Source: an uncultured Planctomycetales bacterium (GTDB lineage Bacteria > Omnitrophota > Gorgyraeia > Zapsychrales > GWA2-47-8). Taken from it: a DNA stretch of 64,000 nucleotides. Both the position numbers and the translations under genes were made by a program. This document shows, one piece after another, positions 1 to 48,000 of this stretch (the stretch's first letter is position 1; every line of letters starts with the position of its first letter). The notes under the pieces were generated by a model, which did no database searches, was not told where the DNA came from, and saw nothing but the letters and a program-made list of their open reading frames with translations. The DNA lies in assembly GCA_964499685.1 (NCBI GenBank), contig CAZCLW010000001.1:119859-183858 (forward strand). Direction: 5' to 3'.

Positions 1-40
1 CGCCTCGGTCCTTGAGCTGCATCATGAGATATGGGCCGTC

Positions 41-15000: not shown

Positions 15001-18000
15001 CGCGCATTTGAAAATTAAGGAAGGCCAGGCTGATATAGAGGACCGCAATAGTTACCGGCTTTACATGACCCTTCTTAATCTCGATGCCCTCAGGGTCGAA
15101 CAAGATGAAGCCCTGCGGGTGATCCAGTCCATCATGCCTTTATTGGCCAACGAGCAACTGCCTGAAGTTTATGCCGTTCCCGCCTTTAAGGTATTGGCCA
15201 GCATCGTCACAAACCATCCCCAACAATTTGCCGATCATCCGCAAACAGACGTTCTTGGCCCCGAAGCGGTCAGCCGCACGGTCCGCCGTATCGCCGGGAC
15301 CGGCGTGCTGGAGAAAGATTACAGTGAATTTCCCATGCATGAAAAAACAGCTGCCGTCAGGATCATTTCCGCACTGGGGACATTCGAAGAATTTAAGACG
15401 TATTTGGCCAAAGATGCGGTCGGCTTGCATGATCCCCATCAGGACATCAGGACCGAAGCTTATAAAGGTTTGAGACGTTTCGGTAAAGATGCCCTGCCTT
15501 TATGGCTCGCCGGATTAAGGGATACCGAATTAAAAGTCTGTGACCTGTGCGTGAACGCTCTTATAGCCATCGGCAAGGAAGTTGAGCCGCATGTCTGGGC
15601 GATCATAACCGATCCGGCGGAGACCATACAGGCAAAAGCCCAAGCCTTCAGGATCATCGTTGAATTCGAGCTTGGGGCCTCCGACGAGGCGACAAAATTT
15701 ATTGAGTCTTTATCGCATCCTCTGCCTTTCGATCTCATCCGGGCTTTGGGCCGGACAGGTAATACCGCTGCCGTTCCGACCTTGATCGAAGTCATGAAGA
15801 ATAAGGACGGCCATTACGGCAATATAGACTGGCGCGAAGAGGCCGCGAAAGGATTAGGCAGGCTTAATGATGCCCGCGCGGTCGAGCCGCTGGTCAGGTA
15901 TCTGTTCGATGTCGGCAGTTTTGAAAGAAGCGCCGCGCGTCATGCCCTGACCCAGCTGTCGCGGCTTACCGCCCAGGAGATCGTTCCCGGCGTTTTTGAT
16001 AAAGCCCAATTAAAGGTCCTCAACACCAAGCGGGCCCGTCAGGTCCTGAATATCTTGCATGAAAGCGTTCCGACCGTCGATTATTCCATTGAATATATCG
16101 GACAAATGCTCACCCAGAACGATAACGAACAGCTTCGCGACGCGCTGGACCTGTTCAAGAAAAGTAAAGAGCTTAACATTCTTTATCCGTTCCGGTTCTG
16201 GGACGGGGATATGGACCTGGACCTTATGCGGCTCGTTATCCAGAACAGGCTCGATCATCCGGCTGAAAAAGATGAGCGGCCGCTGGCTGTCATCATTGTC
16301 CCGCGCAGCGACTGGAATGCTGCGTTTGACAGCGATGCCCTGAGAAAAACGATCAAGGAATTAAATAAGTCTTATTATGTTCTTTATTATGAGGTTTCGA
16401 ACGAAGATGAGATGATCAGAAACTTCCTGGCGGCAACGGAAAAGAAAAAAGCCTCTGTCCTGCTTTTGGGCGGCCATGCGAACATGTCCAGCATGTCCTT
16501 CGGTGCGGAAGATCCGGCGCAGGCGGCGGTCAAAGAAGAAGATGAATGTCTCGTCATTTCCGTCTCAGATAAGGACAAATTGCAAAATGCCGGGATTTCC
16601 GTCCGTCTGGAAGACGGAGGGATCGTCATTCTCGGCGCCTGCAGTTCAGGCAAGGGTAAAGGAAGGGAGCAGAACCTGGCCAACATGTGGCGGGAAATAT
16701 TCCCGCAGGCCCGGGGTATCTGGTCGCCTGTCGAGCCCACACCGTTACCGGATTTCAAGTTTAACGCCGATGGGAAAGTGGAGGAGGTCAAATATCCTTT
16801 CAGCGACACCTATATCGGCTGGATCGATCAAATGATCGAAAACGGCGTTATCCAGCCTGACTTTATTAAAGAGGAGAAGCGAAGCGGTGCCCTTGCTTCG
16901 ATGTATCCGGGAGAAAGATCGACCTTGTGGCCGTTCTTGCTCATGGCCAGCGCGGGCGTCGTGATGATGATGTCCTCGAGCTTCAACCGGCGCAAAGAGG
17001 ATGATTTTGATCTGGAAGGGGATGTCAATGACCGGCCGTCCCTGACTTCGCCTTTCGCCATCCCGCACGTAAATAAAGCGCCCGATGCCAAACGGATCTT
17101 GTTGGAAAAGTTATTGGCAGCCTACGGTCTGCAGCCTCTAAGCGAGAATCTTGGCAGAGAGCACATTATGGTCATCCTGGCGGAATGCAATTGCGACCAA
17201 GGTTGGGTGGTTTTCAAGACCCCGCGTTTCCGTGCGGGCGAGAAAGAATTTGAAGCCGAGAACCATTTGATCGCTTATCTTATCGGCCAGGGTGTTCCGG
17301 CTGCCGCTGCTCTTAGAAATAAAGAAGGCAAGATCGGGACGGATATCGAGGGAACAATCTATGTCGCTTATCCGTATATTCAAGGACGCCATGTCGAGTT
17401 AGGCGTTATGTCGCCTGAAGAAAGACGCAGCGCCGCGCAGGCCTTGGCCCGGCTTCATAATGCAACCGCCAAGTATCAGTCCTTGCCGGAGTTGGGAGCG
17501 GATGAATTCCGTAACGGACTTTTGCATAAAGGCATATGGACCATGGGAGAACTGGTCGCCGGTTTACCGTTATCCGAAAGGCCCAAGAGCGCGCTGGAAG
17601 AATTTGTGGAAGAAAATGTTGTTGAACTGATTGAAGAGCTGACCCGTCTTGAACGGGAATTGCCGTCGGAAGTTTATACGACGCTCCCCAGTCAGGTCAC
17701 CCATGGGGACCTTCATCCGGGCAATATCCTGTTCCGCGAAGAGAAAGTGGCCGGCATCCTCGATTGGGAGTTGGCGCACTACGGGCCGCGCCTCGGCGAT
17801 GTGGCTGGTCCCATGTCCTACAGCCGGCCCGAGGACGGGACTTTGCTGGACCTGAATGCGGTCCGTACCTTTATTACCGCCTATCAGGAAGCTGCCGAGC
17901 GAAAACTGACCAGAAGAGAGCTTGAGCTTCTTCCGGTCTTTTACAGACGGGATTTTCTCGGCACTATCCTTTATCTGGTCCAGTTCCATCTTAGGGATGA

Positions 18001-21000
18001 TTATCAAGGAAATTTTGTGAAAGCGGTGCTGGCCAGTTTGCGCAAAATAGACCGGCTTGATTGGGATAGCTTGCATGATCTTTCCGCGGATTCCCGCGCT
18101 CCTCTGGCTGTCAGCTGGCTGTGGCTGCCGGTCATCACATTGCTCCGGCGCGTTATGGGTGACCGGGCCATTGCGGTCACCATCGGTATTATTGAAGAAG
18201 TGCTGCTCTCGGCGCTGGTCGGTTATGTCTTCTACCCGCTTTTCGGCCGGGTCTATGCCCACTTAATGCATTATCCGCCGGGCATTTATGCGCCTGGCTC
18301 TTCGCTTTGGGCGGCCGGCTTTGCATCCGCGGCAGGAATTCTGCTTGCCATTTTATTGCATACCCAAAAGACCTACAGATTGGTCGATGGAAAATTGATC
18401 CTCAGCGAAAAAGAAGTCGGGCGGCCTCATTATCCTTTACGCATGCTGGAAATTTTTGCCGAAGAAAGGGCCCCTAAGGACCTCAAAGTCCTGGCCAAAA
18501 TTTTCAGTATTATCCGCATTGTTTCGGGCGGCTTTCTCTATATATTAGGCCCCATCCCGTCGATCTTGACCGCGGCCCTGATGCACGGCCTGTATAACGG
18601 CTTGATCGCGCCTGTTTTTGGCGCGCCCCTGGCCATGGCGGACATAGTAGATATCGGAATAATCTCCGGTACTGTTGATGAGCGTCTGGCCGAGATCGCG
18701 AAGGTCGGTCGTGACCGGTCCAAGTTCGAAGATGTGAAGGCTGTGGGCCATGTGATCATCGCAGGGACCTTGCCCAAGTCGGGGAATCTGGATATCGGGA
18801 AACGTCTTGGAAAATTCCCGCTGCATGGTGGAGAAAAATATGAATTGGAAATGGCCGGCGGCTTCCCGGTCAGGATTACTTTCAACCAAAGCGGCCGGAT
18901 ATATCCGTTTTATCGTATCTGGAATGCCCGGACGGGTGAATTGATCGATACACATACCGGAAAGATGACACGCGCGCGTATGCTGAACTACGGAGATATT
19001 GTCACGGAAACACAATTGAACGAAGCAGGGAAACTCTCGCTGGGCGGCGGGCGGCCACGGGTCAATGGCCTTATGCCAAGGCCACAAAAGGCCTGGGCCA
19101 GGATAGAAAAACATGCCGAAGAAAGAGTTATGCTCTATGTGCATGGGGGGCTGGTTGTTAAGATCTGGTCGATGACTTCTGATCTTAATGAAGACTTTGT
19201 TCTGGTCTGGGATAAAAAACAGCGCCGATTTATCTCCTCCTATCTAAATTATTTGCCCTCCGACGAATATGCCCTGGTGACATCCGCACATGAGTTTTAT
19301 AAAGAACGCCTGACCAAATACGGTTATCTGACGTTTGGCGGCCGCGAAAATGCCGTTTATTTCGGTGAGGAGTATGCTTACGGAAGGGTCATCGTCCGCA
19401 AAGTCCGTTCGGCCGCTGCCGGGCGTATTTTATTCGGCGAAGCGGTTGCGCTTAAAGATGGTTCGACCCGGACTTTGCGTCCTGTGTATCGCGTCAATCC
19501 TGGAGCGGCGGAGGATTCCTTTGAACGCGGTGAATTGATCGAAGGGGTGAATGATCTTGGCCGGAATTTGCAAAATGAATGGAAGGATTTTATCGTAGGT
19601 GAGACGGTTTTAACGGACAGCGCGCTCTATCAGGCGGGTTATCTTGGACGGTTCTCCTACTTCCCGGATGCGGTCGTGGAATTGAAGTTTATCGACGGAC
19701 AGGCGCGCTATGTGCGGTTCATCCGTGATGCACAAGGAAATCCCGTTACCGATATCCATGGCCGCGATCTCGTCGTTGATCTTCGCCGGGATATTTTGGA
19801 GCAAATGAAGCAGCATTCAAAGATTTATTTTGAACGGAAGATCCATAAGGCCCAAGAGCTGCTTGTCCTGCCGGGACAAAGGCAAAACCTGGTTGAAGCC
19901 CGCCGCATGCTGACGCGCCGCGTACTAGAACGCGTTCCGGCCGGAACGGAGATCGCAGAAGCCGCCGACGCTGTTCATCAAGCCATGGGTGCAAAATTGC
20001 ATTCCCTGCGGGTAAGTCAGGGCACTTATTGGGCTGTTACCAGGGCCGGTGCCGCCCTGGAGAGAGCACAGGTCTCCGTTCAAAGCGGAAATCATGCCAA
20101 GGCCGTCCGTCTGGCGCGCGATCTTCTGGAAAGGATCAGGCGGTTCAAAAAACTTAACCCGTCGGTAAACGGAGAATTTGATGATATTGTCGCGGCGGCC
20201 GAATTTATTCGTCGGACAGCTCTGGCCGGCGTTGAGAATGGACGAAAGGTGGAAGTTGATTCCATCCATACGATTTATAGAGAAAAGCCGGTGTATACCC
20301 AGCCGGAAGAGGAAAGGCTGTGGAGCCTGCTCGCGGACGGCCAGAACCATGCCCTGCTGCCATTGACGGATATATATATTTGGGAGATCAAACAGATCGC
20401 CAAAGAATTCACCTGGGAATACAGCGATTTTTATGAAGATCTCGTACATGAAGGCATTGTGTACTTCTTGGAAACCGCCGGAACATACGGTCTGTGGCAG
20501 AGAGAAAGCCTGCGTGAGCTCATTTTTGCCCGATTGCGTCAGAGGTTTGATGAATTAAGAAAAGAGCGCAACCGTATCATCTACCGGACCAGATCTTTGC
20601 AGGCGCCGCTGGGCGGAAATCAGGACGGAAAACCGTTCACTCTGGAATCTTTACTTTACACAGAAGATGACATTGACACGACGGAAACTGTCGAAACTTC
20701 GTCGAGATCGATGTCTTTGATAAAGCCGGCCGTCTTCACGGTCTTTTTGGCCGGATTATTAACGACCGGCGCGAAGGCGCAAGCGTTGGGTAATGATCTT
20801 GCCGTGCAATCGCAGGGGGCAGATTGGCCGGCCATATGGCACGCCTTGGGCGCGAGCGCTATCTTATTGATCGTATTTGTTGCACAAATGATCCTCGTTG
20901 CTTTATGGCACGAGATCGGCCATGCGCTCCCTACGCTCTTATTCGGCGGAAAAACAAAGATCAGGCTCACGTGGAGCGGCGCCGAGACCGTGCGTGATAT

Positions 21001-24000
21001 CGATCCGCGCGTATTCGACGGATGGAGGGGATGGAAAGGCTTCTTGATGGACGCCGGCGGCCCGCTCTTTACGTTCTCCCTCATTCCATTGAGCATTTGG
21101 ATGATGACGTTGGAATGGGGCGCCCTGGCTTTCCCGGTGGAACTTATCCTTTGGGCTGTCTTGCTGGAGAATGTGATGATCGGTTTTATGAATGCCGTAC
21201 CGGGAGTGTTATCGGAAGAAACCCACGGCAAGACCGACGGGAACAGAATAGCCGACCGCATTCTGGAGAGGCGTATCCAGCGCTCCTTTAAGCGTCTGGA
21301 GCGCGCAGGGAAACTGAAAGGCGCTCTTATTTCTTTGGATCTGGGTCCTCATCTCTCCCTGATTCGCGCCAGAGGATTCGTTGCGGTTGCGCAGGCTTTG
21401 GCCTATGTACGGTCAGGGGTCAAGGTCCGCGCCGGGCCGGCGGAATTTTTTGCCCGGAATCCCGGTAAATACGTTGTCAGCTATAAAGGTACCCTATACA
21501 TCACTCCTGAATTCCAAGACAATGTCCACTTGTTAAGGTTCCTGATCATCCGGGAACTGACAAGCCTTTTAGGTTTCCCTAAACATTTCAAAGACCAGTT
21601 TTATAATGTCATCAGATCGGGCCATCCCGATGAAGAGATCCAATTGTGGGCGGAGCGCCTGGCGATCGCGCCAAAGCCGCCCGCGAGATCACCGCTCCTG
21701 CAGCTCGATTCCACGCGGACGATCGGATATAAGTTCTTCGCCCGTTATTTCGGCTGGCATGCGCCTCCGGCATGGCTCATTGATATTGTCTTTACCGCCG
21801 CGTATGAGCTTCCGCAGACCTTCCGCCCCATCCATTTCTATCTTAAACACGATAGCCGCACACTGTCGCAAAAAATTTCCCGCGCCGCCGGTATCGCCGG
21901 AATTTTGACCGGAATGCTGGCGGCGGGCATCCTTTTCCATTGGATGATCATGCCATTGGCTAATGTGTTCGTTCACGCTTTCTATAATATGTTCTTCGCC
22001 GCTAACTTATCGCTGCCGAAGCGGCCCTCCAAGGCCGAGCGGGAATGGGAGACCAGGCCTTTGGACATGATCATGGCCTTTTTCCGCGATATCATGACGG
22101 TCAATTTTGACGCCATTGAAGTGATCACCGCGCGCAAAGATAATCCCGAGGATACCAAGATCAAACGGCGTTTCACGACGGTCAGAAAGCGCCTGGAACG
22201 CCTGCATCAGCGCCTGAGCGATTGGAAGACAAGTACAAATTTGTCCTTGGCCCGCAATGCCCGTCCGGAACGAGATCAGATCTTACGTGACCGCCTGGCC
22301 TTGATCGAAAAATCCCTGCAAAGGTTCGAAAAGGCCGTTGAATTTTTCCAGAAAGGTAACGGCCCTGTGGTCGGCCAGATCCTTTTCGCCGTCACCGGTA
22401 CGCTCATGAACGAGTATGAAAGAATTTCAGACCAGCAGATCGCGCGTTCCCGCCAATACCGCGCCCGGCAGAACCTGGATTATCCGACGGGACGGGGACG
22501 CATTTGGAAAGACAGGCGCACGCGTCAATTCATCCTCTCCAAATGGGGCCATCGCCAGGTCGAGCCGGCCAAAGGCGTTAAAGTGACCCGCCGCGTTCTA
22601 CAGGAGATCCTCTTCGATACGTATTGGGAAATGCTGCGCTCTTTGGATCACACCTTTGATTCCCAATTCAAGAACCGGGACCACATAAGCAATATCCTGA
22701 AAGCGTTCAAGGCGCTCAGCGACCGATTGTCCTCTCAGTCGGGAAGAAAGCTTTCCGATGATCTGGTCAAAGAAATTTCAGCGCAATTGGAAGCCCTTCA
22801 AAAAATGGTATCCGGTCCGCGTGTCATCATTGAATTAAAATTGGCCCAATCGGCAGTGGCGACCGCACAATATTTATTCGAACGAGGCCGGTGGCGCTTC
22901 AGCCTTAAGATCATCTTGCTGGCGCAGCGGTTTTTTGCCAAGCGCCTACAGGAGATCGGCTCGATGATCGGCCGGAACGAAGACGGTAAGCTGGCCGTCA
23001 TCCGCAACATGATAGCGGAAAGAAACCGTTATATCCTGGCCCGCATCGCAGACATCAGGGCAGGGAACCGGAAAGCGGCTTTAGGATTGGCCAGTTATCT
23101 GAAAAACAATAAAGACCCGGATCTGGCCGGCGTGTACACATTGATCGTTGCGGCCAGGCAGGCGCAGGAGCAAGGCCGCCATGAAGACGCCCGGCGGTAT
23201 TTGCTCTGGGCCGAGCGCCGGGTCATCATCTCCACCCGTTTGCATGAATTTATGGCCGATTACCGCGATCGGGTCAAGGACTTGAGGCTTTCCGGTACGG
23301 AAGAAGCTGAGGCCTCGGCCAAAGCCTTCCGCGAGGCTTTTGAAGGATTATTCAAGGAATACCAAGACGAAAAACGCCATAAAAAACTTTGGGCTTACCG
23401 TCTTTATCAGGCGGTATTCGTTTCTTTGCGCATCAACAGTCCGGCCGATCCCCAAAAACGCGTTTCCAATCCGCTGTTTGAATTGTTCTCCGTCTTTATC
23501 GGTATCCTTGAGCTCAAAGAGATCAAAGATATTTTAAGGGCTTCAAGACTGGTCAGTAAGCGCCGTACACCGCAACTTTATAAATTCTTGGAGCAGATGC
23601 AGAAGAAATATTCTCAGATAAGCCAACTATCAAAAGAGGAAAGGCATCGCCTGATCGTCCTCATCGCCCAAGACCGTCAAAAGGAAGCAGGCGGACTGTT
23701 CGGTCCGCGCGTTGACTTCCTGGCGGAAGTCCGGAAAGCGGCGGTCCTAGCCGGGCTGACCAATGGTTTTAACGGCGTTCCGCAGGACGCCTCTTCCAAC
23801 GGAGAAGACAGGGAAGCGGTCATGCGGAAGATCGAAGAACTCGGCGGACTTATTGCCATCGCCGTTCTTTACGGAGGATTTATCGAGCGCGAGGAGATCG
23901 TGAAATTGTACGATGTGGAACGAATGGTCCGTCGGTTGCAGGAACGCGTTTATTTCCTGCGCGGCCCGCCCGAATTGGACGTTGTCAATGTGGTCGAAAC

Positions 24001-27000
24001 AGGAAAGCTCATTCCAAAGGCCACGTACATCATTATTCCGCCGAATGCGCCGGAATGGAAAGTCCAGCATGAGATCTGGGCCGTCTTGACCGGCAGGCCC
24101 CACGCCGAAAATCCATTTACATCACCGTCAAAACGTGCGCTAGAAAGATTATTTGAATCCGTCAATCGCGATGTCCGGCAGATCAAACCAGAGGATGTCG
24201 AGGTGCTCTTTCAGCAGACGCGGGTCCGGCGTTATTTATACTGGATATTCTTTTATTCGCGCATCCAAAGATTATGGGACATTTCCCGTGAATACCGTTT
24301 CGACCAGCGTAGGCTCTCTTTGGAGATCTACCGTGAATTCAAGACAGCCATCGAATCGATCAAAAGAAAGACGCGTCAAAGGTTTATGTCCATGCTCAGA
24401 AGTCTTCCGGAATTTGAGGCTCTTGAGCACATTGAGAAGGCGCATATCGTCGACACCCTGATCGTCCATGAGAAAAAGCGGATCTTGACGGCCATCCCGC
24501 AGGACATTGTGGTCATCCCGGCCGACGGTGAAATGTTTATCTTTTACCGGAATCTATTTTTGCGGCTCTTTGATCCTGAGGATCCCCGCAACGATGATCT
24601 GTTGTGGGTATTCCGGAGAGAAGGACATATCCGGTCTTTGGTCAAAAGGACTATTCTTCATAGCAGACAAGGCCTGGCCATAGGTATCCAGGTTTATAAG
24701 AGCGACGCTTCTTTTGCGGCCATGATCGCCCGGCTCTTTAACGGCAATCATCACAATATCTGGGAACACCTTAAGAAAACCGCCAAAGAAGCCCGCGGCT
24801 CTTCTTCGATGGAACCGCTGGTGAGAGAATTTGCCCAGCTGCTGGCCGTACACCGTTCTCTGCGCTTATTATTTGAGCCTGTATTCACTGAGCATGAAAT
24901 GGCCACCCTTGTCCGTTATGGAATCAAAAACCATGATCGCGACTGGGAAAGTTTCCAGCGGAAAATATTTGCGGCTATCGGCGCCTTTCATCTCTTGAGT
25001 CCGGAACCGGCGATGCATGTTAAGAACAACCACCGCCATGATCAGGTGATCGAATTCGAGGTTTTTAAAGGCACAAAGGTGCGCGGTATTTTCAAGAAAA
25101 TGCCGGGACATGAGTCTGAGCGATTGCCGGTCATCATCCTTACTCCTAATCACGCTCCGCCCGGGTTCCATGACATCCAGAATTTCCTTAAGGTGCACGT
25201 GCTGCAGTTGGAATCGGTGGCTACCAATGATCATATTGTGATCACCACGTTCGGCTATATTGAAAGTGAGAACATCATGATGGTCATCGAACAGCTCCGG
25301 CAACGTAACGATATCGATCCCGACAATATCGTGCTCTGGGGACTTTCCGCCGGGGCCAACCGTGCTTTGTTGGTCAATAATAAAATGCATCAGCAGGGAA
25401 TAAAGCTCCCCAGGGCGATCATACTTGATTCTTTGATCGATGACACACTGGACGGGCTCCGGCGCGGATTCGGATGGATGGGCGGCGGTATAGACAAGCG
25501 TTATGCCAAAGAAGCGATCCATTATGCCTCGAAGATGGTCCGGGAGCATTTACGGCGTTTGGGGATCGAAATGGATATCGATCTCCTGGTTAGAAGATCG
25601 ACGGATGTCTCCCGCATCGCCACAAATACCCTGATGGTCTTTGCCTTGCTGGATGACTATACCAATCAGGATGAAATGGACAAATTCATACGTAAATTGG
25701 TCCGTCTGCGCGGGACCAGGGAGTTCGGCGCGAAGCATGTTTCCTTCAAGATCATCGCCTATAACAACCGGCACGCCCACGGCTTCCAGGATTACCGTGA
25801 TTTCGCCATATTATTCATTCATTCACTGCTGCCCGTCGAATACCGTCTTGAACGTCCCGGCAGGATGGAGGATGCCCGCCGGACGGTCGCCGTCTACGGC
25901 GATGATTATCTCAAGCAGCCGCCGGGATCATTGGCGAATAAATTCAGATCCAAGAGAGATCCCGCGCGTCCATTGCCGGGCAAGGCGATGCCGGCGCGGT
26001 CGGTTATCGAACGCGAACTGGAAACACAAGATTTAGATAAGCTTTCGATCATTGAAACTTCTTCTACGATTATAAAGGCGGCCGTGGCTATATTGCATAT
26101 GCTCGGCGAGCACAAGATGGCCAAGCACTTGTTCTGGATGGCCAGACAGGGCCTGATCCGCGCCGGTCCTTTTGCCAGATATTTAGCAACAACCTATTCC
26201 CGTAATGGGAAAGAATACCTGATCCTCAGTAATTATTATCAAAGTCATAATAGTTCTCTTCAAAGGGTCTTAAGTCTTATCCATGAGATCGGGGCCACGG
26301 CGCCGTTCGATCTCTCCCACGAAGCCAATCTTTCCAGAGAAGAAACAATCCACCAGTGGATACAACGTTCATCTTTGACCATTATTCGGATAGCGGCCCC
26401 TGAGTTCCGCCGGCCGCGGCGCCTGGCGGACCTCGAAAATTATCAAGAAGGATCGATCGCGGAAGAAGAGATTGTCAGCTGGTGGGAGAAAGGGGAACGT
26501 CTGCTGCCGGTCAATCAAGTCATCCCGGGACACGTAAGAAGTATTACCCCGACGGTACGCCGCAAGTCGGCCAAGTACCGGCATAGTCCCTATAAATTCC
26601 TCGTCGAAGGATTCCGCGCGTACGTCATGGTCACCCGTTTTGCGGCTAATCGCGGTCCGGTCGTTGATCTTTATGAACGGAAGAGGTCGCGTCTTAAATT
26701 CGTGGCCGCTTATCAATTCGTTGCGTCGTTCAACAGGACGGTCCAGGTCAACTTGGCCGCATGGGATATCTGGGATTACATCCATGGCCGGGAAGATCTG
26801 ATTCCCGTTGAAGGGCGATATTTTGAATCCACCATTGTGAACGAATCCTCTTATCCGGATTCTTACCGTACCAGCGTTTACCTCAAAACATCCAGCGACC
26901 GGCGTTCCGAGCAAGACATAAGGATCCGGGTTTCCCCCGAACATATCAAGCATAGGAATTATAAGGGCCGCAAGGTGGCGATCGCTTTGGAAAACGACGC

Positions 27001-36000: not shown

Positions 36001-39000
36001 CCCGGTCCCGGAAGAGTTGAACGAGGCGGTGGTTTTGGCAGCAGGGAACGCGGTGGAAACGATCCGGGAGTGTTATGTGAAGGAAATAGGCATTGATATA
36101 AAAAATTGGACCGTGGCTGGTATAGCTGAACCGGTCGAGGCCATCCGTCACATCAACGCACCTGTCCTTTTAGCCGTGGAGTCCGATCAGATAGTCGTTA
36201 ATGCCGCACAGCGCGAAGCTTTTGCGGGATCTGCAGGGAATTCAGTTTCCATCCGTACATATGCCGGGACGCATAACGGGATCTTAACGGGCGAAGACGG
36301 GGAGCGGTTTATTCAAGACGTTGTGGCGTTCTTATCAGAAAGCATACCGGCCGCTCCGGTCACGCGAGAAAGATTCATTGATTTCTTAGATCAGCGCGCT
36401 GTAATTTGGCAAGTCCTTTCAGCTCTGGAAAGCTTCCGCGCGGAGGGGATGATCCGTGGTTACGGTATATCCGGAAGTTTTTCGCGCGGCGAACTCCGTC
36501 TGGATAACGGTCACGACCTGGATATCGCGCTTTTGCTCAAAACCCGTCCGCAATTCCCCGAAAGACTGATCAGATACATTGATCAGGTCAATAAAGATCA
36601 CGGCGATGCCGTACATATTACCCTTGAGGCCTTTGGACCGGCCTATCGCTTCGACCCACAGACCGGATCGCTGCGGTTTGAGATGGTGCGCGGCCGGGAG
36701 ATTGTCCGGTCCCAGATCGGATCCGGTAAATATAAAGGAAATAGATTTATTCAGCTTTCAGATTTGCCCATTACTACGGATGTCCTGTGGCAGTTGTATC
36801 AAACATTGGCCGCCTTGGGCCCGCTGACAACCGATGAGGTCCGGGCGATGCTGGATGTGGAAGCCTGTCCCAACTGTGTCCTTAAATTACTTTCTCCACA
36901 GCGCGCCGTTGAAGTTTACATGCAATTGCAAAAAGATCCGCAGCGTAATATCCGTTTTGTCGAGGGCCATCCTTATTTTAACGTTCAAGCTTTACTGGAA
37001 ATTCTCAGGTCCGATGAGATCGAGCGCATCTTTGTCGAACCGGACCCAACCGCCCCGGGGCGCGGCTGGCATGCCACCTCACGTAAGACCGGCGTCCGGC
37101 TGACCGATATTCCGGACCCGGCCAACGCCTGGGTGGGGGCCGCAGAAGATACATTGGGTGGCTGGTCAAAAATTTTGTTGGATGGCTTAAAAAAGGCAGG
37201 ATTGGCGTCAAAGCAGTCGTTAAGGATCATCGATTTGGGGACCGGTTACGGATATTTCTTGCAGCATTTTGGACGACTTCTCAAGCAGTGGGGCTATCGC
37301 GTTGAGGCTTTGAAGGGCATCGATTATGACAGCGGTTTGGCTAATGCCCATCAAGTTTTGCGCGAGCGGTCTGCGGAATTGCCGTTAATTTTTGCAACCG
37401 CCAGAGTGGCGGAATACAGCGATGACCAGGAATACGATATCGTGTCCATGAACGCCCCGCATACCCAGGTCTTGGAAGAATTTACTTTACGCGCTCTGCA
37501 GTTGGTCAAAACAACCGGAATTATCTGGATCCGGATGGAGCAAACACAAGAAGACTGGTTTGTCTCTGCCATGACGGAATTGAGCTATCATTTCAAGAGA
37601 ATACCTAAATTTGCCGGAATGGAACTTAAGGAAATGGAATTGGTTGTGGGGGACGGTCTCGTGGACAATGAATGGAGTAAAAGTCCCGTCGTTCATTTAG
37701 TCTATTTTACTTCTTCAAGGCCTTCGAATTTGCGCGATGATCCTAACGGCCGGGTGGGGGCCAAAACAAGAAGAGAATGGCAGCCGCACGAGATCCGTCA
37801 GTGGCTTTTGGAAGAACTCGGAGAAGAATTAGGCATTGCTTTTGTGAGGGTTTTGATTGAAGGGTATGAAAAACTTCTTAACGGTGAGAATATTGATAAG
37901 GTCACACTAGCTGGTCTCTCCTATCAGCTGCGCACGGACCATTTTCTGGTGGCGGGATTGGGGAGAGTGATCAAATATCAATTCGAAAATTCACATTATG
38001 AGGCTGTCATCCGTTTATTCGACCGTCTTCCTTTAGCGAAAGGAAATTTTGTTCGTTTTACGGCCGGAGAAAAACGAGTCCGGCCGGAGAAAGATCCCTT
38101 TGCCGCACAAAAAGAGATCCGCCGGCGTTTGGCGTATTTGAGCGGCGCTCCTTGGATCGCTACCCTTGTTGACGAATACGAGATGCTTCCTGACAGCGGC
38201 GGAGACCCCCATACAATCGACCGCCTCGCGCAGACCGCCTATCAGATCAGAAGAGGGCATTTGCATATATCCAGCTTGAAGGATGTTTTGACCAAAGGCT
38301 TCGATGGTGATCCCCGCCAGGTGATAATGTATGCCTTCCCGCGGCTTGCGCTCAAAGAAGAAGGCTTCAAGGTCGTCCTGAAGGTCGATAAAGACCACTT
38401 TTATCAACGGGTTTACCGGATCAGCAAAGACCCGGCGACAGGGAAGGAACTCCGAGAACTGGTCAATGTGGAACGTCAGAGTGCGACATTTTCCTTCCTT
38501 GATACGCCGGGGCCGCATCTACGCCGCACATTTTTGGCGCAGGATGGACGTATCTATCTGTGGCCTAAGAAATTCGTTGGGCCGCTTAGGGTCATTAAGG
38601 TCAATGGCCGGAGCCGGCCGGATCCGGCCTTGACCGGAAGAGCGGTGGATATTTATTATGATGCCGACAATATTCCACGCCGGCTCGTGATCTATGAAAC
38701 ACCCGAGCGGATCAAACTCTTGGATTCCATTCATCTCCACCCTATATTGACCGTCCTGGATTCAGGGAGGACCCAGCTTCACGATGTTTATTATCGAGGC
38801 TATCCTTCCCAAAAGCGCCAAGCCCTGACGAACCATGTTGTCGAAGGAAGATTGAGCCCTCAAGGGACTTTTTCATTCGCGAATGATAATAAAGAGGCTT
38901 CCGGTGCCTGGGCCAGATTTGGGTTGAGGGCCGATCACACTATAGATCCTTCTTATGCCGGCGCGGCATACTCCGCCTATTTTAAGGATGGCTATCCTCT

Positions 39001-42000
39001 GTGGGCCGTTATCTATAAAGAAGGCCGATTGACCGAGGAAGAAGGTGAGCTGCATATTTTCCAGCGCATTCTAAGACAAAAGGACCTGAAAGTGGTCAAA
39101 ATTTTCGGTACAACGATATCCATGGCTACCTGGCCCACGATTTTATCCGAACATGGGCCGATCTTCATTGAAGGCAGTTATGTCGCCGATAAAAAGGGTA
39201 TTATTACTATCGCCGGCAGAAAACTGCGTTCTAGGGAATTGGCTGGCCTTCCTGTACTTATGAAAGCCGATGAGACCGGCCGTTTTTATGCCATGCCGAT
39301 GATCGTTCCCGATAGGATGAGAAAATGGAACCATGCGGTTTTTGCGGCCCAAGTGAAAAATATGATGGCGCAAGAACTGACCCGCGCCCCGGCTGAGCGT
39401 GTGCTCATTGTTCCGGAAGGCATCGATGAAAAAAGCCGGTCATTTTATGAGCAGCTATATCGGAAGGAAAGATTAAGCCAAAAGGGCGTGGTTTCCTTGT
39501 ATGAAGACATTATCTATTTAGGGGATTTTGCCCTGGATCAGATCTTGCGTGGAGTTCCTGAGGACGTCTTGAATTACAGAATTAAGTCGGGGGATAGGGA
39601 AGATACGATCAGGGAATTCATACGTCAGGTCATTCGCCATGGCGTGGTCAGTATCAATCGCGGAACTTTGGGCCCAGCCCATGAACGTCTGGGCCGGGAT
39701 ATCAATCTGCGAGAAAGGCCAAGGATCGCGCTTATGTCGTTTGTTTTGCGGGCAGAGGCCGCGAAGGACCTGATCTGGGCCAGCCATGCTTATCTGGTTT
39801 CAGAAGAGATCGCGCGGGTCCGGGCTGCGCGTCACCTTAAGTTAAATGGAGAAGACTGGGAAGAATTGCATGCGATCGGGTTAAACGTATCGCTGAGGAA
39901 GGCTGTCCAGTTTTATAACATTTATGATGCGCGGTCTAGGAAGGCGACATTTGTTACATATGCCCGCAAGATCATCGAGCGCGATATGCTCAAGGCCCTT
40001 ATCAAAATTTCAAAAGTAAGAAAACGGATGCCTTTGTCATTGCATCATCCTTATGGACCAGAAGCAGAGGGGCGGCAGTGGTCGTTGCTTGATGAGATCG
40101 TGGATGAAAGGACCGGCGTAGTAACAGAAAGCTTTACACCGACGCAAGGTTCCGCCAAAGATGGATTTTATGCAATCATGCAAGGATGGCGCATTCTGGA
40201 CGAACGTACCGCGGAAATGCTTTGGTTGAGATTTTTGCATTATTTTGGTTTTGAAAGATGGACTTATCAGCAGATCGGAAAAAAATTCGGTGTAAGCCAT
40301 GAGACCGTCCGCTTGACCGTTTTATCGCTTTTAGAGGCATTATTCCAAAGACCGGAGATCATCGTCGATATCGGTGCTTTATTCGGCATTCGATTGGATG
40401 CGGATACGCTTGTCTCGCTCTTGGAGCGCTGGAACGGCAACGGTAACGGTAGCGGAGAACATAACGGTGATGATGAAGGTTTGAAAGGAAAACAGGCCAA
40501 TGCCCTGGCCTGGCCGGTCATGGCTTTGGTCCTCTTGTACATTTATCCTTCCCTGATGACCTTGGCAGCGATAGCGCTCCTGGTGGTTTTGTCGGCAGTC
40601 GTTTGGTATAAAAAGCCGCGGCCGCGCGAAGTTGCTTTAACACATTTTCGGAAAAACCTGCGCAGGACAGTCATGTTTAACAATGATACTGCGGGCTATT
40701 CCTTATGTTATCCCACCAATGAGGATTATCTTGGCGCGCAGATCCCTGGTTTACGGCAGATGGTCGAAGCGAAAAAAGCCGCCGGAGAAACGACTGTGGC
40801 CGTTTCCGTGTCCGTGGACCAAACCCTGGGCTTTTTAACGCTTTTTGACCGCGTCTATCTCCTGGATAATACCGCCGCGGTCGTTGAATTGGCTTTTCCG
40901 GCGATGATCAAAATGATCATGGAGGCGCAAAGCCGGGCTGATTTTGCGGCACGGCTTTTCTGGAGGGAATTGAGTCCGGAGCAGTTAAAGGATTTGGAAC
41001 ACGCCCCGTTATCCGCGATCGAAGAATATTTAAGGGATGATGATCGCTTTGCGGATCGCGGCGTAGATCGAATGTCCTATGTGGTGGAGCTTCTTTATGG
41101 GATCGCGACCCGGAAGATGCGCTGGACATTATTGAGAAAGAGGGAATTTGAGGATGCTGTTTATGAGTTGCGCAAGTTGTTCTTCGGCTGGATCAGGACC
41201 GAAGAAGATCTTGATTATGCACCGGAAAAGAGATTATCCGCTTTTGCCGCGGCAACATACTTGAAAGATGAGGATTCTTTCCGGACGCTGAAGACGAAGC
41301 TGGCATCGGGCGCATTGCTCCCTGTGCTCGGCGAAATAGAGGGGGAAGGCTTAAGATATGTCACAAATGATCTGCAGGAGAAAGGATGGACGGCGCATCT
41401 GATCTATATTTCAAACAGTCTGGAATTGGCCGGCCTGTTCGGCAACACAGGGCTTATCGACCACGACATTTTTGCGAAGTTCAGGGCCAATCTCAGGCGT
41501 GCCAGGGATAAAAGGGTCATTGACAGCCGGACATTGATCTCCTGGGGTATCGAAATTGACAGGATGCGTCTGAATACCCTGGAAGAATTCTTTGGCGTTG
41601 ATTTTCCGCTCGACGAGGAGTTTTTGGGAAGTAAATCGCACAAGGCTGTCGTTTATCACGCTGATACCAAGATTTCCCGGAGGCCTTATCGTCCGAAAGC
41701 ACCGGAAGAGCGGTATACGGACGTGGATCAGTACCTTCTCGAGAAAAGGATCGATCCGCGGGTATTAAGACAGTTGGTGAAGATCAACAGGAGCAAACTC
41801 AATGTCTCGATCGTTATCCCGACGACAAAGAGCAGCCGCCACTTAAGAGAGACCGTCGAGCATGTGGCCAAGCAGTTTTCTTTTATACGGCAGCAGCGTC
41901 CGGGCTGGACGGTCGAGTTGATCCTGGTTATCAGCGGCGAAGAATTGGACCGGACGCGGGAAGCGGCTTTAGCTCTTCAAAATGAATTTTTCTTTGCCGG

Positions 42001-45000
42001 AATCAGGGAATTCACCGTTATTGAGTTAGATGTACCGGGAAAGGTCAATGCCATGAATGCCGCTGCTGAATACGCTAAAGGAAAGGATTCTGATGTAATC
42101 GGGTTCATTGATGATGACGTACGGTTCCTGGATGAAAATATGCGTTTAGACCGGACTGTATTCATACGCAGCGTTCAGCATTTGGTCGACACCAAAGAAG
42201 CTTATTTTGTGGGGCCGGACCTTCACATTCTCGCTTCTGAAAATCGCAGCGGCCTGATCACCCGGGCCGAGCAGGCCTACCGCGAACGCCGCGCGCATTT
42301 GGCGCTAAGGTTCCCGGTGGGCGCCGCCATGTTCATGCTGACCAAAACTTTCGCGCCCATGCCTTCTTCAACGATCAGCGATGATATGGCATTGCGTTAT
42401 TATTATGGCGATCCTTATATATTGGAACAGCGCGTTCAAGTCGTGCCCAAAACAGCCGTATACGCCCGCGGCGAAGGAAGTTTCGGGGAGTATTGGAAAC
42501 GCCGTTTCCGCTTGAGCGTCGGGAATAAACAAGCCGAAGACTTCTATAGGGAGAAATACGATGCCATAAGAAAGCTGCGGCCTGCCCTTTCCTCATTTTG
42601 GTTAAGGACCTATCTCTCTGGATTGAATAAGCAGCAAAGAGGTGAGGCCCTGAAAAATCTTTTTGTGCTCCTGATGGCCGGCGGCTGGCTGCCGATCCAC
42701 ATTTATGTTGTTCTGCGTACGCGTTTCAGAAAAATCCTTCATCTTGATCCCTACCGCACCAAATGGCACGCCGTATCTTCATCGACTCAATGGGAAACCT
42801 CTTCAAAGCAAGTGAATGTCCTGGCCTGGCCGGTCATGGCCGGGACGGTGGTCTATCTCTACCCGTCCCTCGTGACGCTTGCCGTGATAGTCGTTCTCAG
42901 TATACCGTTTCTGGTCTATTGGTTCAGAAAAGAAAAAGCCCATCGGCCCCGTCATGAATTGACCGCCAAACAGGAAGAGGCTTGGAGCTATGACCGCGCC
43001 GTCGACTGGGACCTTTACGGTGCCGTCGAGGTCCGCGCCCTTCTCAGACGTCTGGAAGAGGAGAACAAGCTAGGGGAAGTGATCGTCGATGCGGGATCTT
43101 CTTATAGCCCGGTGACCCGCTTATTGAAAGATAAAAAGGTGATTGCCGTTGATGTAGCGGCCATGAAGCCCAGTGAAAATATCCGGTCCGCCGTTGCCAT
43201 ACCTGTTGATTCGCCCACGATCCTTCTGCAAGGAAATATCCAGCAGCCGGAAAAGATCACGGCGATCGAGGAGGCCCGTTCTTTGCTTGGCGCCGCTGAG
43301 CACATTAAAAATCTTGATGAATTATTGGGTACGCGCGTCGATACGGTAGTTCTTTCCCGTATCCTCAATTATGTGGATTACGAGCATGTTATCGCAAAAG
43401 TCATTGCGTGGCTTAAACCGCAGGGCCGCTTGATCGTGGCGAATGATACCCGTCAGGGATCGCGCCGGCGGTTCAGTTCCGGCGGCCTGAAGAACAACCG
43501 GCGGTTCGTGGCCTTTTTGAAGTCGCAGGGCTTTGCGATCGAAGAGCTCGCCCCTGATCCCGTCGGAAAACGTAAAGATGTCATGCTTGTTGCCCGTTAT
43601 GATCCCGGCGAGGTTCTGTTCGGACACCAGGGTCATGCCCAGGGAGAGCATAAGTTGTCTTTGGAAATAAGGACGGCGGATCCCAAGCAGTGGATACGGC
43701 AGCGTTTGGTTCCTGCTTACCTACACGAGGGTTTCAAATTAAGTCTGGCTCTTAACGAGCCTAATTATTTGCGCTTTGCCCTCAACCCTGTTGAGGCGCA
43801 GAGTGATGATGATTTACGCATGTTGGTCCACCTTAAAGCCCAAGAGGATATTGTTTACATGTACGGTGGAAAATTGCGCGACCGGCGCGGCAAACTGAAC
43901 TGGCGGGTGATCGAAAGATACCTCAAGGAAGCCTTGTTCCCGTTCCTGCTTTCCCGCGGATTCAAGATGGTCTATGTTCCGATCGTGCATAAACATGCCA
44001 AAGCGCGCCTTATCAACATGGGCTTCAGGCGCCATGGCGACGGAACGCTAAAATATGAATTGGCGCCGGACCTTCTTCCGGAAGCGAAGGGCTCGCTCAG
44101 CGGAATGGGTTTCGCCGTCGTCCCGCTGTTTGCTGGCATGCCTGACGGCATGGTGAGTTTATTGATCACATTCATGGTGTTTGCTATCGGAATGATGTGG
44201 ATGGTCAGCGGAAACGGGAACGGATACGGCCCGCGGCGGGAACGCCTGCGCAGATTGTTCGTCCAGAAGAACCTTAATCCCAAGACCGCGAAGGGCGACC
44301 GGACCGCGCATGTTTATTCGGTGACAACGGTCAACCCTGCCGAGAAACTGATCTTCCATACGGCGCAATCCGATAAGGGGATCGAGCGGCTGGAGAACAG
44401 CTTTGATATTCTGCACGCGCTGCAGTCGGAAGGAAGGCGCGAAGATCTTCCTCATCTCTTAACGCCCATCCGGCGGTGGGAGCCAACCACGATTGACGGT
44501 AATAATTTGCGGCTGTTTGAGATGGACCGCGACGGCGAACAGCACGGATTTATCACCAACTATGTCTCGGGAGTGAACGGTTATCGGGTCCTGTTCAGGC
44601 ATGTTGTTCAATTTTACGGCGCGCCGACGGCCTGGCAATGGCTGGTCTCCTCGGCCGAAGTCCTGGCTTTCTTGCATAAACGAAGCGACGGTAAACCTTC
44701 CATCGTGCACCGCGACATCAAGCCGGGTAATTATGTCATTGATGTGATCGACGGGAAGATTTCCGTTGTGCTGATCGACTTTGAGTCAGCGGTCGAAGCA
44801 GGAAGACGTTTTAACGACCGGGAAGAGATACATCTTTTCACTGAGGATTTCTCGGAACGGGAACTTGCCAGACGGGGCGTGCCTCTCGTATCTTTTGATC
44901 AGACCGCGCGTCACGCGTTTGATATTTTCGGCTGGGGGATGACAACCTACTATTGGATGACAGGGGACTTTCCGTACGCCGCCGCCAAAAGTATGAACAT

Positions 45001-48000
45001 TGCCACCTTGTTCAGGGCTTGGAAAAGAAGATTATTGCGGGCCGGGGCTTCTGCGTCTACTCCTGTCATCCTCAGGGCCATGATGCCGTTCCGCGATATG
45101 CGTTACCGCTCCATGGACCATGTGGTAAGGGACCTGCATAAACTCGGCCAGGCGCAGGGATTAATCGTCCCTAACGGCGATAACGGCAAAGAACATAGAC
45201 CGCTGGGTTTTGCGCCGAGAGGGTTCTTGTCATGGCTCTACTCCATTCTTCCCGACGGGGCTCTCGGATTTCCGTTCCGCGTGGCGTTGGCGGGGATCGT
45301 GATCCCGATCTGGGAAGGTATCAAAGATTTTGCGTTGCCGTCCTTAATCCTTGTCTTAAGGCGCAAGGTGAGTTTGTTCGATGTCAAGGGCCTTATACGG
45401 ATCATGCACCGCTTTAGGGCCATGCATGAGGACCAATTTTTTGTTGCCAACAGCCGTGTTGCCTTCCATAAAAATGATTTTACCGAGGAAGAACAACAAA
45501 GAATCAACAGGGCCATCCGGTCCTTCTCACGGATCTTTATCCTGCCCTATTTAGTATGGCTGAGGTGGATGCGCGGCTGGATGGTCTTTGTCGGCGTGAT
45601 CAACGCCTACCTGGGCGTGGTCGCTCTGGCGATAGGAAGGCCCATATTTCCTTATCCCTTCGCTCTTTTTGCAACGGCCTTTATTCTGGTCCTGCCGATC
45701 ATCCTGGCGACGGTCCATTCCGTCGTTCTTCACATTTCTTACAACCTTTCCGTCTTGCTTTTAGACGAAATAATCCCGCTGGCCATGGCCAGTCCGCTTA
45801 AAGAAAAACGCGGAAAATTGATCAGAAAAGTCATAGCCGACTTAAAAAAGAAGGGCGTTAAACCATTGGCCACGGCGGTTACAGAAGAGATCCGGAGGAG
45901 GGCCGCTGAAAATTCTAAGATAGAAGAGTTGACATTCGATCAAGTCTGGAGCACGGCCGAGGAATTAGGTATTGAATTTGAGACACGGTCCATCGATAAA
46001 AAGGAACGTGTTAAACAGATCAAGCGATTGGCGGAAGATTTTCTCGCCAAGAATAAGCGCAAGCCAACGCTTCACGAAATGGTCGATCTGCTTAACACGG
46101 ACAACAAAGGTACGGATGTCACGTATCAAAATTTGTTCAAGTGGTTTGAGGGCCATGATGTCGATTATCAGCGCTTGGGCATCGTGAAAGTCGAGCGCAG
46201 CATGGAAAATTCCCTAAGCCAGATCGTCGAAGCCGCCCGCGCGCTCCAAGAGGAACGGTCGAGCAATGAGATCACGATGGCGGAGATCAGGAAAAAAATG
46301 GGTGTTAAGAATGCGGCTTTCTCAAATCGTCTCAGAAGATTGAGGGAAGCCGGCAAGGATGCCCAGGCCGAATTAATTGCGGCCGGGTTTGTGTTCAAGC
46401 AACCGCCGCCCAAGCGGGTCAAGCCGCCGAAGGCCCAAAGGGAAAAGAAGACGCCGGTCATGAAAGTCCGCAAGGTCCGGATCCCCAAGGAAAAGCGTCA
46501 AGGTGTGGGGAAGGGCCAGCCTCTTCACGTGCGCAAATTGATCCGCCGGGGAGAATTTGAAGAGGCTGAGAGGATATTGAACGAATGGGATGAAAATAAG
46601 ATGGGATCGGTCAAGACCAACGCGAAATTACGTCAGGAGCTTGAGGCGCAGAAGATCGCTGGTCCTGTCCCTGTCCATGTTCCTAAAAAACGGGAACGGG
46701 TTGTCCGCGTCAAAAAGCCCGGCGTGGGGCGGGGGAACATCGGCCGTATCCGCAAAATGATCCGTCTGGGAGAATTTAACGACGCGGAAGCCATGTTAAA
46801 CGATTGGGAGGCAAAGCAATTGCTGCCGGCGTCGCAGATTGCCGGATTCCGAGAGAGCCTAGCAGCCGGAAAAATAAAAGCGGAACAGGAAAACGCTGAG
46901 CGAGAAAGATTGGAGGCCGAGCGTGTTTTAGAAATTGAACGCGCGAGAAGGGCTGAAAAAGAAAGATTGGCGGCCGAGATCGCAGAAGCCGAATTCAAAA
47001 TGAAAGCTGACTCGGAAAGACTTCAAGACGCCGCGGAGCAATTAAGGACGGCCCAGGAAGAAAGATTGAATTTGGCCAGAGAGCAATTAAGCAGGCAGGA
47101 GGAAGCTTTGCGGGCCGGGTCGGGCAATTTGCGCCGGCAGCTGAACGATCATCGTGCGGCCTTGGAGGATCTCGAAAGAAGATTGGAAGAACAGGGCCAG
47201 CGTTTACAAAGGAGAGTGCAGGCCCTGCAAAGAGAAGAAGAAAGGAAACAGAAAGAGATCGTCCAGCTTATCGAGCGGATCAATGAGCATTTAACCCAAC
47301 ATATTTTCTTTGAGGCGGGAGCGCGCAGGGCCTTAACGCGGCTCAAAGAACTTTTGCCGGGCGACGATGAGCGCTTGGCAGTCCTTGAAAGCAAATTAAA
47401 CGAAAGAGCGGTATTGGAGCGGGACAACGCCATTATCCGGGCCATGTGGGATGCAATTGAAAAGCAGGAGTTCGATCCGAATGCGGCCGGTAACGCCATT
47501 GAAAAGCTGAGGAAAGGTTTGAGCCGGGACCGCCCTGAAATTGTCCGCATCCGCGAAGCCTTGGTCGTAAGAGACCGAATGGAGAGGGGAATTTACGAGC
47601 AGACCGTTAAGGTCAAACCTATCGGAAAAGCTGTGCCGCTCAAGAAGGCTGATGAAAAATCTGCACAAGCACCGACCATCGAGCAATTGATCGAGAAGGG
47701 CGATTATGGCACCGCCCGCGCAGTCCTGGGCGGTCTATCCGAAGAAGATCGGCTGCAATGGGAAGAAAGAATAAATATAGAAGAAGGGTGGCTCGAGATC
47801 GTCAATTTGATCGCTGCCATCCGACGGGAGATCGTGCATTTGCCCGATACAGGTGACATCACCGAAGAATTGAATGCTCTTAACCGCAGTATCGACCGGC
47901 TCAAAGAACTGGAAGAGAAACATCCCTATTCCAAAGACCGGGAAAAAATGGCCCACATGGAATTGAGGGAAAAGGTGCAGGCCATCCAGGAAAAATGGAA

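Follow-up and report, generated by a model that had tools for sequence, protein, structure and literature searches.

The window analysed here is a stretch of 64,000 nucleotides from contig CAZCLW010000001.1 (assembly GCA_964499685.1, an uncultured bacterium placed in the Omnitrophota), and it is nearly filled by a single giant gene whose product carries several kinase-type modules, the subject of this report. Read from a mechanical TTG start, the open reading frame (ORF) extends from 41 to 53044 and contains 17,667 codons. Bases 2-40 are also free of stop codons in this frame, and because the frame is open back to base 2, the gene may truly begin before the first base of the window. At this base composition, a frame so long would stay free of stops by chance with a probability of about 1e-373, the longest ORF in the other five frames over the same span has at most 230 residues, and the GC content along the gene is even (0.46-0.53). 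Two proteins encoded in the flank were found exactly, and only on Logan contigs of 1-2 kb, from the runs SRR10807626 and SRR10807893, which shows that the DNA comes from a real organism of the environment, and no tRNA, rRNA, marker gene or Rfam element was found in the window. When the whole protein was searched with Pfam, most of the chain matched no family, and the combined Pfam and NCBIfam map revealed about 15 unrelated modules that tile the chain, none of which dominates (Table 1).

Table 1. Modules of the giant protein and neighbouring genes, with positions in the window, residues of the giant protein, strand and basis of assignment.
Feature	Window position	Residues	Strand	Basis
Giant ORF	2..53044		+	at least 17,667 residues; mechanical TTG start at 41
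CPBP/Rce1-like intramembrane protease module	4091..4423	1351-1461	+	Pfam Rce1-like, E 8e-10
AK1/UMP-CMP-kinase-like P-loop nucleoside monophosphate (NMP) kinase module (ADK-like)	4541..5095	1501-1685	+	Pfam ADK and AAA_17 above cutoff
HPr-like phosphocarrier module	9776..10024	3246-3328	+	Pfam PTS-HPr, E 7e-9 to 7.5e-11; NCBIfam PTS_HPr_family
HEAT		about 4842-5303	+	Pfam
APH-family kinase module	17207..17893	5723-5951	+	Pfam APH, E 1.5e-23 to 2.5e-25
Protein-kinase-like domain HYEN..DFG, uncatalogued	30065..30880	10009-10280	+	family search and predicted fold
P-loop NTPase module, NACHT-like or nucleoside-kinase-like	33368..34060	11110-11340	+	Walker A GWPGSGKS at nucleotide 33425 (residue 11129)
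Methyltransferase		11463-11557	+	Pfam
Alpha/beta-hydrolase		11863-12078	+	Pfam
Methyltransferase (another)		12379-12471	+	Pfam
Sigma70_r4		13386-13424	+	Pfam
GT2		13923-14157	+	Pfam
Hanks-type Ser/Thr protein-kinase module	44309..45160	14757-15040	+	Pfam Pkinase, residues 14825-14986
GDE_C	48293..49447	16085-16469	+	Pfam, E 1e-100; archaeal-type gde, E 2e-64
Four consecutive type-IV pilin/pseudopilin-like ORFs	53047..55002		-	each matches Pfam N_methyl (E 5e-8 to 1e-5)

An earlier note, written from the bare sequence, had listed five motifs of kinase-type domains (APH-type, Hanks-type, an atypical kinase and two NMP-kinase-like P-loops) and had assigned them to the range 17150-45150. All five were located within a few bases of where they had been placed and all lie in the one ORF, but the range was drawn too narrowly, since the first P-loop at nucleotide 4559 falls outside it. 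A motif sweep of the giant protein detected no further kinase-fold cores above chance, the three extra matches being equal to the chance expectation.

The P-loop at nucleotide 4559 (residue 1507, GKPGSGKS) is the Walker A motif of the ADK-like module, in which the Pfam ADK and AAA_17 profiles matched residues 1503-1653, the former with 38.6-46 bits against a cutoff of 26.8. The best solved relative is human AK1 (1z83), which aligns over its full length (AK1 residues 7-192, E 2.4e-14), and the NCBIfam models aden_kin_iso1 and UMP_CMP_kin_fam align with the module end to end (E 1e-13). The module keeps K1513, R1536, R1582, R1622, R1628 and R1639/R1640, which include the P-loop lysine and the arginines of the NMP site and the LID. 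In the AK1 alignment the NMP-site arginine is found in GEILR vs GDLLR, the PR of the GFPR block is kept, and the LID block reads KRGLTSGRTEDKE..RRL vs KRGETSGRVDDNE..KRL. The module therefore shares with AK1 and UMP-CMP kinase (PF00406) the full-length alignment, the P-loop, the NMP-site arginine, the LID arginines and the KRG..SGR..D..RL block, whereas it differs from them in being embedded in a giant membrane protein, in scoring far below the equivalog cutoffs (51.8 bits vs 284) and in having valine for the aspartate of the (D)GFPR block. Taken together, it is probably an active short-LID NMP kinase with one atypical substitution.

For the APH module, the 84-90 bits obtained in Pfam (cutoff 23.2) extend over profile positions 23-236 of 239 and residues 5724-5950. 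The motifs HGDLHPGN (nucleotide 17702) and DWE (nucleotide 17762) belong to a catalytic set composed of K5726 (VVFK), H5888-G-D5890...N5895 and D5908, and the Glu-rich stretch E5734-E5740 provides candidates for the alphaC glutamate. Thus, the APH-type domain of the earlier note was borne out, including the constellation of lysine, glutamate and catalytic aspartate that it had named as the mark of a true kinase domain. MPH(2') and YtaA were matched in PDB, and in the YtaA alignment the VVFK of the module falls on VCLK. The module resembles the APH family (PF01636), which comprises type-II homoserine kinase (HSK-II), CotS/YtaA, SrkA/YihE and macrolide 2'-phosphotransferase, in its complete Lys / HGDxxxxN / DxE set and in covering nearly the whole profile, and it differs from these enzymes in being internal rather than free. 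The nearest NCBIfam families were type-II homoserine kinase, CotS and SrkA, none of which reached its cutoff; with no subfamily cutoff reached, the substrate is not assignable.

The Hanks-type module was also confirmed, albeit by a small margin in Pfam: Pkinase scored 31.9 bits when the whole chunk was searched and 35.5 bits with the segment, against a cutoff of 31.7, and only the C-lobe was aligned (profile 63-205). The PADLOC Ser/Thr-kinase models gave PD-T4-6 at E 2e-14 and MkoA at E 1.8e-10, the latter spanning segment residues 34-311 and thus including the N-lobe. LanL-type and PknB-type kinases were matched in NCBIfam, and TBK1 (E 1e-5), TAK1, NEK2 and StkP were matched in PDB at E 1e-5 to 1e-3. 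The motif HRDIKPGN (nucleotide 44708; H14890-R-D14892-I-K14894-P-G-N14897) is followed by D14913-F-E (nucleotide 44777), and the C-lobe further contains FSE14939 (APE-like), D14961-IFGWG and R15021/R15023. Like bacterial Hanks-type kinases (PknB/Stk1, LanL, PD-T4-6, MkoA), the module has HRDxKxxN, the metal-loop aspartate, an APE-like glutamate, the D-x-x-G-x-G of subdomain IX and the C-terminal arginine; unlike them, it has no GxGxxG, has DFE for DFG, and has an N-lobe that Pfam leaves unaligned in a match barely over the cutoff. Of the catalytic constellation, D14892, N14897 and D14913 are in place, whereas K14769 (PAEK) and E14785 would be the beta3 (VAIK) lysine and the alphaC glutamate by spacing only: the pair was placed by eye, and its members are 16 residues apart vs 18-19 in canonical kinases.

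The fourth module, referred to here as HYEN..DFG or HYEN, carries DLHYEN at nucleotide 30740 and DFG at nucleotide 30797. For this copy no profile match was obtained in Pfam even at E<=10, nor in NCBIfam or PADLOC, and nothing was found among PDB sequences, whether the query was the sequence alone or a profile of the family. When 1.84 billion cluster representatives were searched exhaustively with HMMER, a family emerged, with 149 proteins at E<=1e-3, of which 35 reached E<=1e-30, over residues ~10009-10280. Thirty-five members searched against Pfam gave no meaningful match, only isolated ones at E>=0.018, and three members present in an annotated database have neither a Pfam domain nor a name.

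The motif in full is D10234-L-H-Y-E-N10239 with D10253-F-G 14 residues on, which corresponds to the kinase D-x4-N plus DFG spacing, and S10086-F-R10088-R10089-H, E10105-x-K10107-x-P-G10110 and R10176 lie upstream of it. Conservation was counted over 119 aligned domains. R10089 and R10176 are each kept in 118, G10110 in 117, R10088 in 116, N10239 in 114, D10253 in 111, E10105 in 108 (91%), D10234 in 105 (with Glu in another 8), H10236 in 102 and K10107, the beta3 lysine, in 93 (78%), and no conserved acid was found at any alphaC position in these domains. The window copy carries every near-invariant residue of the family. A high-confidence model was predicted for the domain, and two methods assigned to it a bilobal kinase-like fold. 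According to the secondary structure read from this model, SFRR precedes a strand that pairs with the ALEIK strand, and K10107 ends a beta3-like strand; therefore, the RR pair would occupy the usual site of the glycine loop. Alignment by hhalign with the Pkinase and APH modules of the same protein was not significant (E 0.5 and 0.1), and the sole alignment reported sets D, N and D in register. The HYEN domain thus appears to be kinase-like at the fold level and to represent an uncatalogued family, and the atypical kinase of the earlier note was right at that level.

Compared with the atypical, minimal kinase-like proteins SelO, WaaP/RfaP, RIO and Bud32, the HYEN domain has only 11-15% identity and no significant sequence or profile match. 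It also differs from them in having SFRR for the glycine loop, in the lack of a conserved alphaC glutamate, in a beta3 lysine that is less conserved than the glutamate two residues before it (78% vs 91%), and in an extra N-terminal four-helix bundle. We propose tentatively, with the balance tilted slightly to the doubtful side, that the module founds an undescribed and catalytically active protein-kinase-like family, confined to Elusimicrobiota and Omnitrophota on present sampling, in which an invariant Arg-Arg clamp would take the place of the glycine loop, with the Lys-Glu pair dispensable.

The second P-loop is a different case, and the claim of two NMP-kinase-like modules was borne out for the first one only. 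As judged from its motifs, the module is a P-loop NTPase, with a possible Walker B (ILVFDGY, residue 11255) and a hydrophobic insert between Walker A and Walker B. Its matches to AAA_22 (residues 11124-11157), NACHT and nSTAND3 are all sub-threshold and centred on Walker A. When the hydrophobic insert was removed in silico, NACHT reached E 2e-5 (24.9 bits vs a cutoff of 26.7), with the nucleoside-kinase models ranked below it at E 0.004-0.007 (uridine kinase at E 0.007). The best sequence match in PDB was shikimate kinase at E 0.09, and the AlphaFold2 model built from the single sequence had a predicted local distance difference test (pLDDT) score of 33.5 and was unusable. Relaxed thresholds, insert removal, the PDB search and the model all fail to separate a kinase from a STAND-type NTPase. 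By chance alone, a bare Walker A would turn up 0.39 times in this protein, and the NMP-kinase-like assignment is therefore not established for this module; its resemblance to uridine kinase/PRK is one seen by eye and is recorded here as a tentative lead.

Relatives of the giant protein were located through the HYEN domain, by the HMMER search and, in GTDB species genomes, with a profile built from a six-sequence subset (A2) of the 35-sequence alignment (A1), which was itself too diverse for pattern design. The profile found 20 loci with HYEN, and the closest of them (32-39% identity) are mostly metagenome-assembled genomes (MAGs) of Elusimicrobiota, the others being Omnitrophota MAGs. Soluble proteins of 900-1,100 residues end with the domain in high-GC Elusimicrobiota, while in Omnitrophota MAGs and in one Elusimicrobiota single-cell genome it occurs in ORFs of 3,600 to 6,900 residues or more that leave the 10-20-kb loci. 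The ORF at L007:7856-10957 is one soluble homologue from Elusimicrobiota. The HYEN module is all that the window shares with the 20 loci as a whole, and the long relatives from the HMMER search each share one or two modules with it, in other combinations. P0009, for example, combines GT1, HYEN, a methyltransferase and HEAT, P0003 has HYEN and the hydrolase in common with the window protein, and P0042 (867 residues) has a HYEN-type domain at residues 340-614 followed by an adenylate-kinase domain at 685-832 (Pfam, E 4e-31). Based on these arrangements, the modules appear to shuffle independently among relatives.

Several further observations concern the same proteins. The HYEN and ADK pair of P0042 is the only recurring kinase-kinase pairing seen. 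No gene neighbour of the stand-alone HYEN proteins is common across divergent genomes. The Elusimicrobia MAG contig CAZMIB010000121.1 (locus L008) has two tandem paralogous genes of ~900-1,100 residues (L008:4328-7594 and L008:7591-10254), both of which cluster with stand-alone HYEN proteins in BLASTP, and the HYEN match was located only in the first. Cysteine is strongly depleted in the giant protein, with 15 of its 17,667 residues (0.085%), and it is also low in the stand-alone HYEN relatives (0-0.27%), while the median over all 149 relatives is 0.45%. A helical module is duplicated within the giant protein at residues 3853-3959 (11597-11917) and 10360-10480 (31118-31480), the two copies being 29% identical (E 8e-9). 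The second of these positions is immediately downstream of the HYEN domain, and several of the long relatives have the module too (query positions 418-550 in the HMMER search). This internal paralogy hinted at a sixth kinase-like domain before residue 3853, which was rejected, as only the downstream helical module is duplicated.

The description of the product as a membrane protein is plausible, because 26-40 hydrophobic 19-mers were counted depending on the threshold (Kyte-Doolittle), a number that is rough, as is the topology. These segments are mostly clustered between soluble stretches, and the densest cluster covers residues 1118-1481. The CPBP/Rce1-like module lies inside this cluster, directly upstream of the ADK-like module. 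Assignment of the topology from hydrophobicity counts was dropped because of internally inconsistent results; the same inconsistency was reported for transmembrane predictors on giant proteins (10.1101/2023.11.21.568195). Two hydrophobic segments with their flanks, at residues 13484-13529 (40490-40627) and 14256-14304 (42806-42952), are 53% identical, which suggests a recent internal duplication of a membrane-anchor cassette.

As for the modules outside the kinase-type set, the HPr-like module keeps the His-15 signature (GMHLRPS), and its Ser-46 position is not serine. The sigma-70 family module spans regions 2-4 (residues ~13263-13434, window ~39827-40342; SigK-like E 6.7e-9, ECF-type E 1.6e-6) and is followed by a hydrophobic segment at residue 13504. 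No other part of the giant protein is nearly as well conserved as the glycogen-debranching-enzyme module (GDE_C). The N-terminal end of the ORF contains about five tandem copies of a ~119-residue repeat (residues 16-670, window 86-2050), which are mutually 29-32% identical and may run on upstream of the window. The pilin-like ORFs are convergent with the giant gene and lie directly after its stop codon, and TPR, PCMT and DUF4139 genes come after them.

Omnitrophota proteins of 10,000 to 147,000 residues, with many transmembrane helices, unrelated enzyme domains and HEAT scaffolding, have been described (10.1101/2023.11.21.568195; 10.64898/2026.06.07.730766). Nearly half of them have a transmembrane-only topology, and for 13 of 14 giants the flank contains genes for pili or secretion (10.1101/2023.11.21.568195; 10.64898/2026.06.07.730766). 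The catalogue of Nielsen & Lui comprises 916 proteins. The window protein resembles the 'Archaeovorin'-type giants (West-Roberts 2023) and the 'multi-enzyme metabolic cluster' class (Nielsen & Lui 2026) in being encoded by one ORF of tens of kb with many hydrophobic segments. It also shares with Omnitrophota giants the HEAT module, methyltransferases, sugar-active enzymes, kinase/phosphotransferase content and long Pfam-dark stretches, as well as the pilin-like genes in the flank. With a length above 10,000 residues, numerous hydrophobic segments, many enzyme Pfam families and a pilus flank it fits the Omnitrophota giant class, although its length of at least 17,667 residues is below the 30,000-residue focus of the 2023 study. 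Unlike the published giants, it has no detectable full-length relative, and its 17,667 residues yielded neither a dockerin nor a C39/S8 peptidase module; the nearest copies of HYEN, the one module shared with relatives, are mostly in Elusimicrobiota MAGs. The earlier note had called the array of kinases unusual: the four kinase-type modules are real, but multi-enzyme giants have been described as a class, and a 'kinase/phosphotransferase cluster' is present in one of them (10.64898/2026.06.07.730766).

Based on these results, we consider, with a probability of about 0.65, that the window protein is a membrane-anchored giant multi-enzyme protein of the Omnitrophota class, which carries four independent kinase-type modules and no ordered cascade. 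Self-contained catalytic modules would be strung on one chain with hydrophobic, probably membrane-spanning, segments between them. The four modules are genuine nucleotide-dependent phosphotransfer domains of unrelated families, namely NMP kinase, APH, Hanks-type and HYEN. Each of them would act on its own substrate at the cytoplasmic face, where ATP is available, and would work beside the modules of the same chain that act on S-adenosylmethionine, UDP-sugars and glycogen. The existence of the domains, the presence of their catalytic residues and the differing module combinations of relatives are observed, whereas activity, sidedness and substrates are inferences.

A number of observations weigh against this picture. 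In the ADK-like module the aspartate of the GFLIDGYPR/(D)GFPR block is replaced by V1578 (GFVLVWAPR), and in the Hanks-type module the stretch expected to hold the GxGxxG loop reads KTAKGDRTAHVY, with a single Gly, and DFE stands where DFG is expected. Some of the modules could therefore be catalytically impaired, because the ADK aspartate, the glycine loop of Pkinase and its DFG are missing. By the hydrophobicity counts, crude as they are, modules that are all expected to be cytoplasmic are separated by odd numbers of segments. No relatives of the APH and Pkinase segments were found in a word index of 5.8 billion proteins, in GTDB species genomes or in JGI metagenomes. Finally, no SecA_DEAD was found in residues 1-17,667 (Pfam, E<=0.01), though it is reported in most full-length published giants.

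The losses in the ADK-like and Hanks-type modules would also be accommodated if the modules were mostly degenerate (pseudo-enzymes, scaffolds or decaying fusions) or, at the extreme, if the ORF were an assembly artefact, and a second P-loop that fits no family and the lack of close relatives to reveal purifying selection on most modules are in line with this. Nevertheless, a 53-kb stop-free frame is impossible by chance and would not last without selection, the catalytic set of the APH module is complete, the HYEN copy has retained the near-invariant residues of its family, and the flanking genes occur exactly in two independent sequencing runs, so that we regard degeneration or artefact as very improbable, the least likely of the alternatives. 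The presence of the CPBP/Rce1-like and S33/S9-like hydrolase modules raises another explanation, in which the product is a polyprotein that is cut by its own CPBP/Rce1-like or alpha/beta-hydrolase modules or by host proteases, the kinases then being free or separately anchored. CPBP proteases are not known to process polyproteins, and neither repeated cleavage sites nor linker motifs between the modules could be recognised. Occurrence of the HYEN module in soluble stand-alone proteins of ~1,000 residues agrees with processing, and West-Roberts et al. raised self-cleavage of giant proteins as a possibility (10.1101/2023.11.21.568195). On balance we think processing improbable, if less so than decay.

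The earlier note had interpreted the array as ATP-dependent signalling or a modification cascade. In such a system the kinases, HPr and a tethered sigma-70-like module would form a membrane-bound phospho-signalling or modification cascade, where, for example, a Ser/Thr kinase or an HPr-type phosphorelay could control whether the sigma-like module or neighbouring enzymes are released or active. One chain does combine three kinase-fold modules with an NMP kinase and with an HPr that has the His-15 motif, a sigma-70 region 2-4-like module lies between hydrophobic segments, the CPBP intramembrane protease module could in principle free fragments, and HYEN and ADK are adjacent in the relative P0042. 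NMP kinase and APH families, however, typically act on small molecules. EI, EIIA, receiver, histidine-kinase and phosphatase partners were all absent from the Pfam and NCBIfam matches of the whole protein. The modules come from unrelated families and are 3,500 to 4,400 residues apart with unrelated enzymes interleaved, and the relatives share single modules, with neither the combination nor the order being kept. We therefore did not adopt the cascade, which is unlikely, though it ranks above the polyprotein, and we retain the giant multi-enzyme protein with independent kinase-type modules as the preferred interpretation.

Giant bacterial proteins occupy a large region of sequence space that has hardly been annotated, and the apparently independent shuffling of modules seen here tempers the equation of co-located kinases with a pathway, which bears on the annotation of giants. 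The kind of giant protein found in the window is already known, and the most interesting content is the uncatalogued kinase-like family with its apparently non-canonical nucleotide-binding lobe, a kinase-fold domain that was caught by motif-level reading and missed by every profile library. Structure-based surveys keep finding new kinase-like families (10.64898/2026.09.18.752743), and given those surveys the discovery of the HYEN family is useful more than startling. The family is sizeable and conserved, and its domain of ~270 residues with soluble stand-alone homologues offers an expressible target for biochemistry. If the proposed family is real, the Arg-Arg clamp and the dispensable Lys-Glu pair would point to non-canonical nucleotide handling, and the HYEN domain would possibly transfer NMP as SelO does, or phosphorylate glycans in the manner of WaaP, instead of being an ordinary protein kinase.

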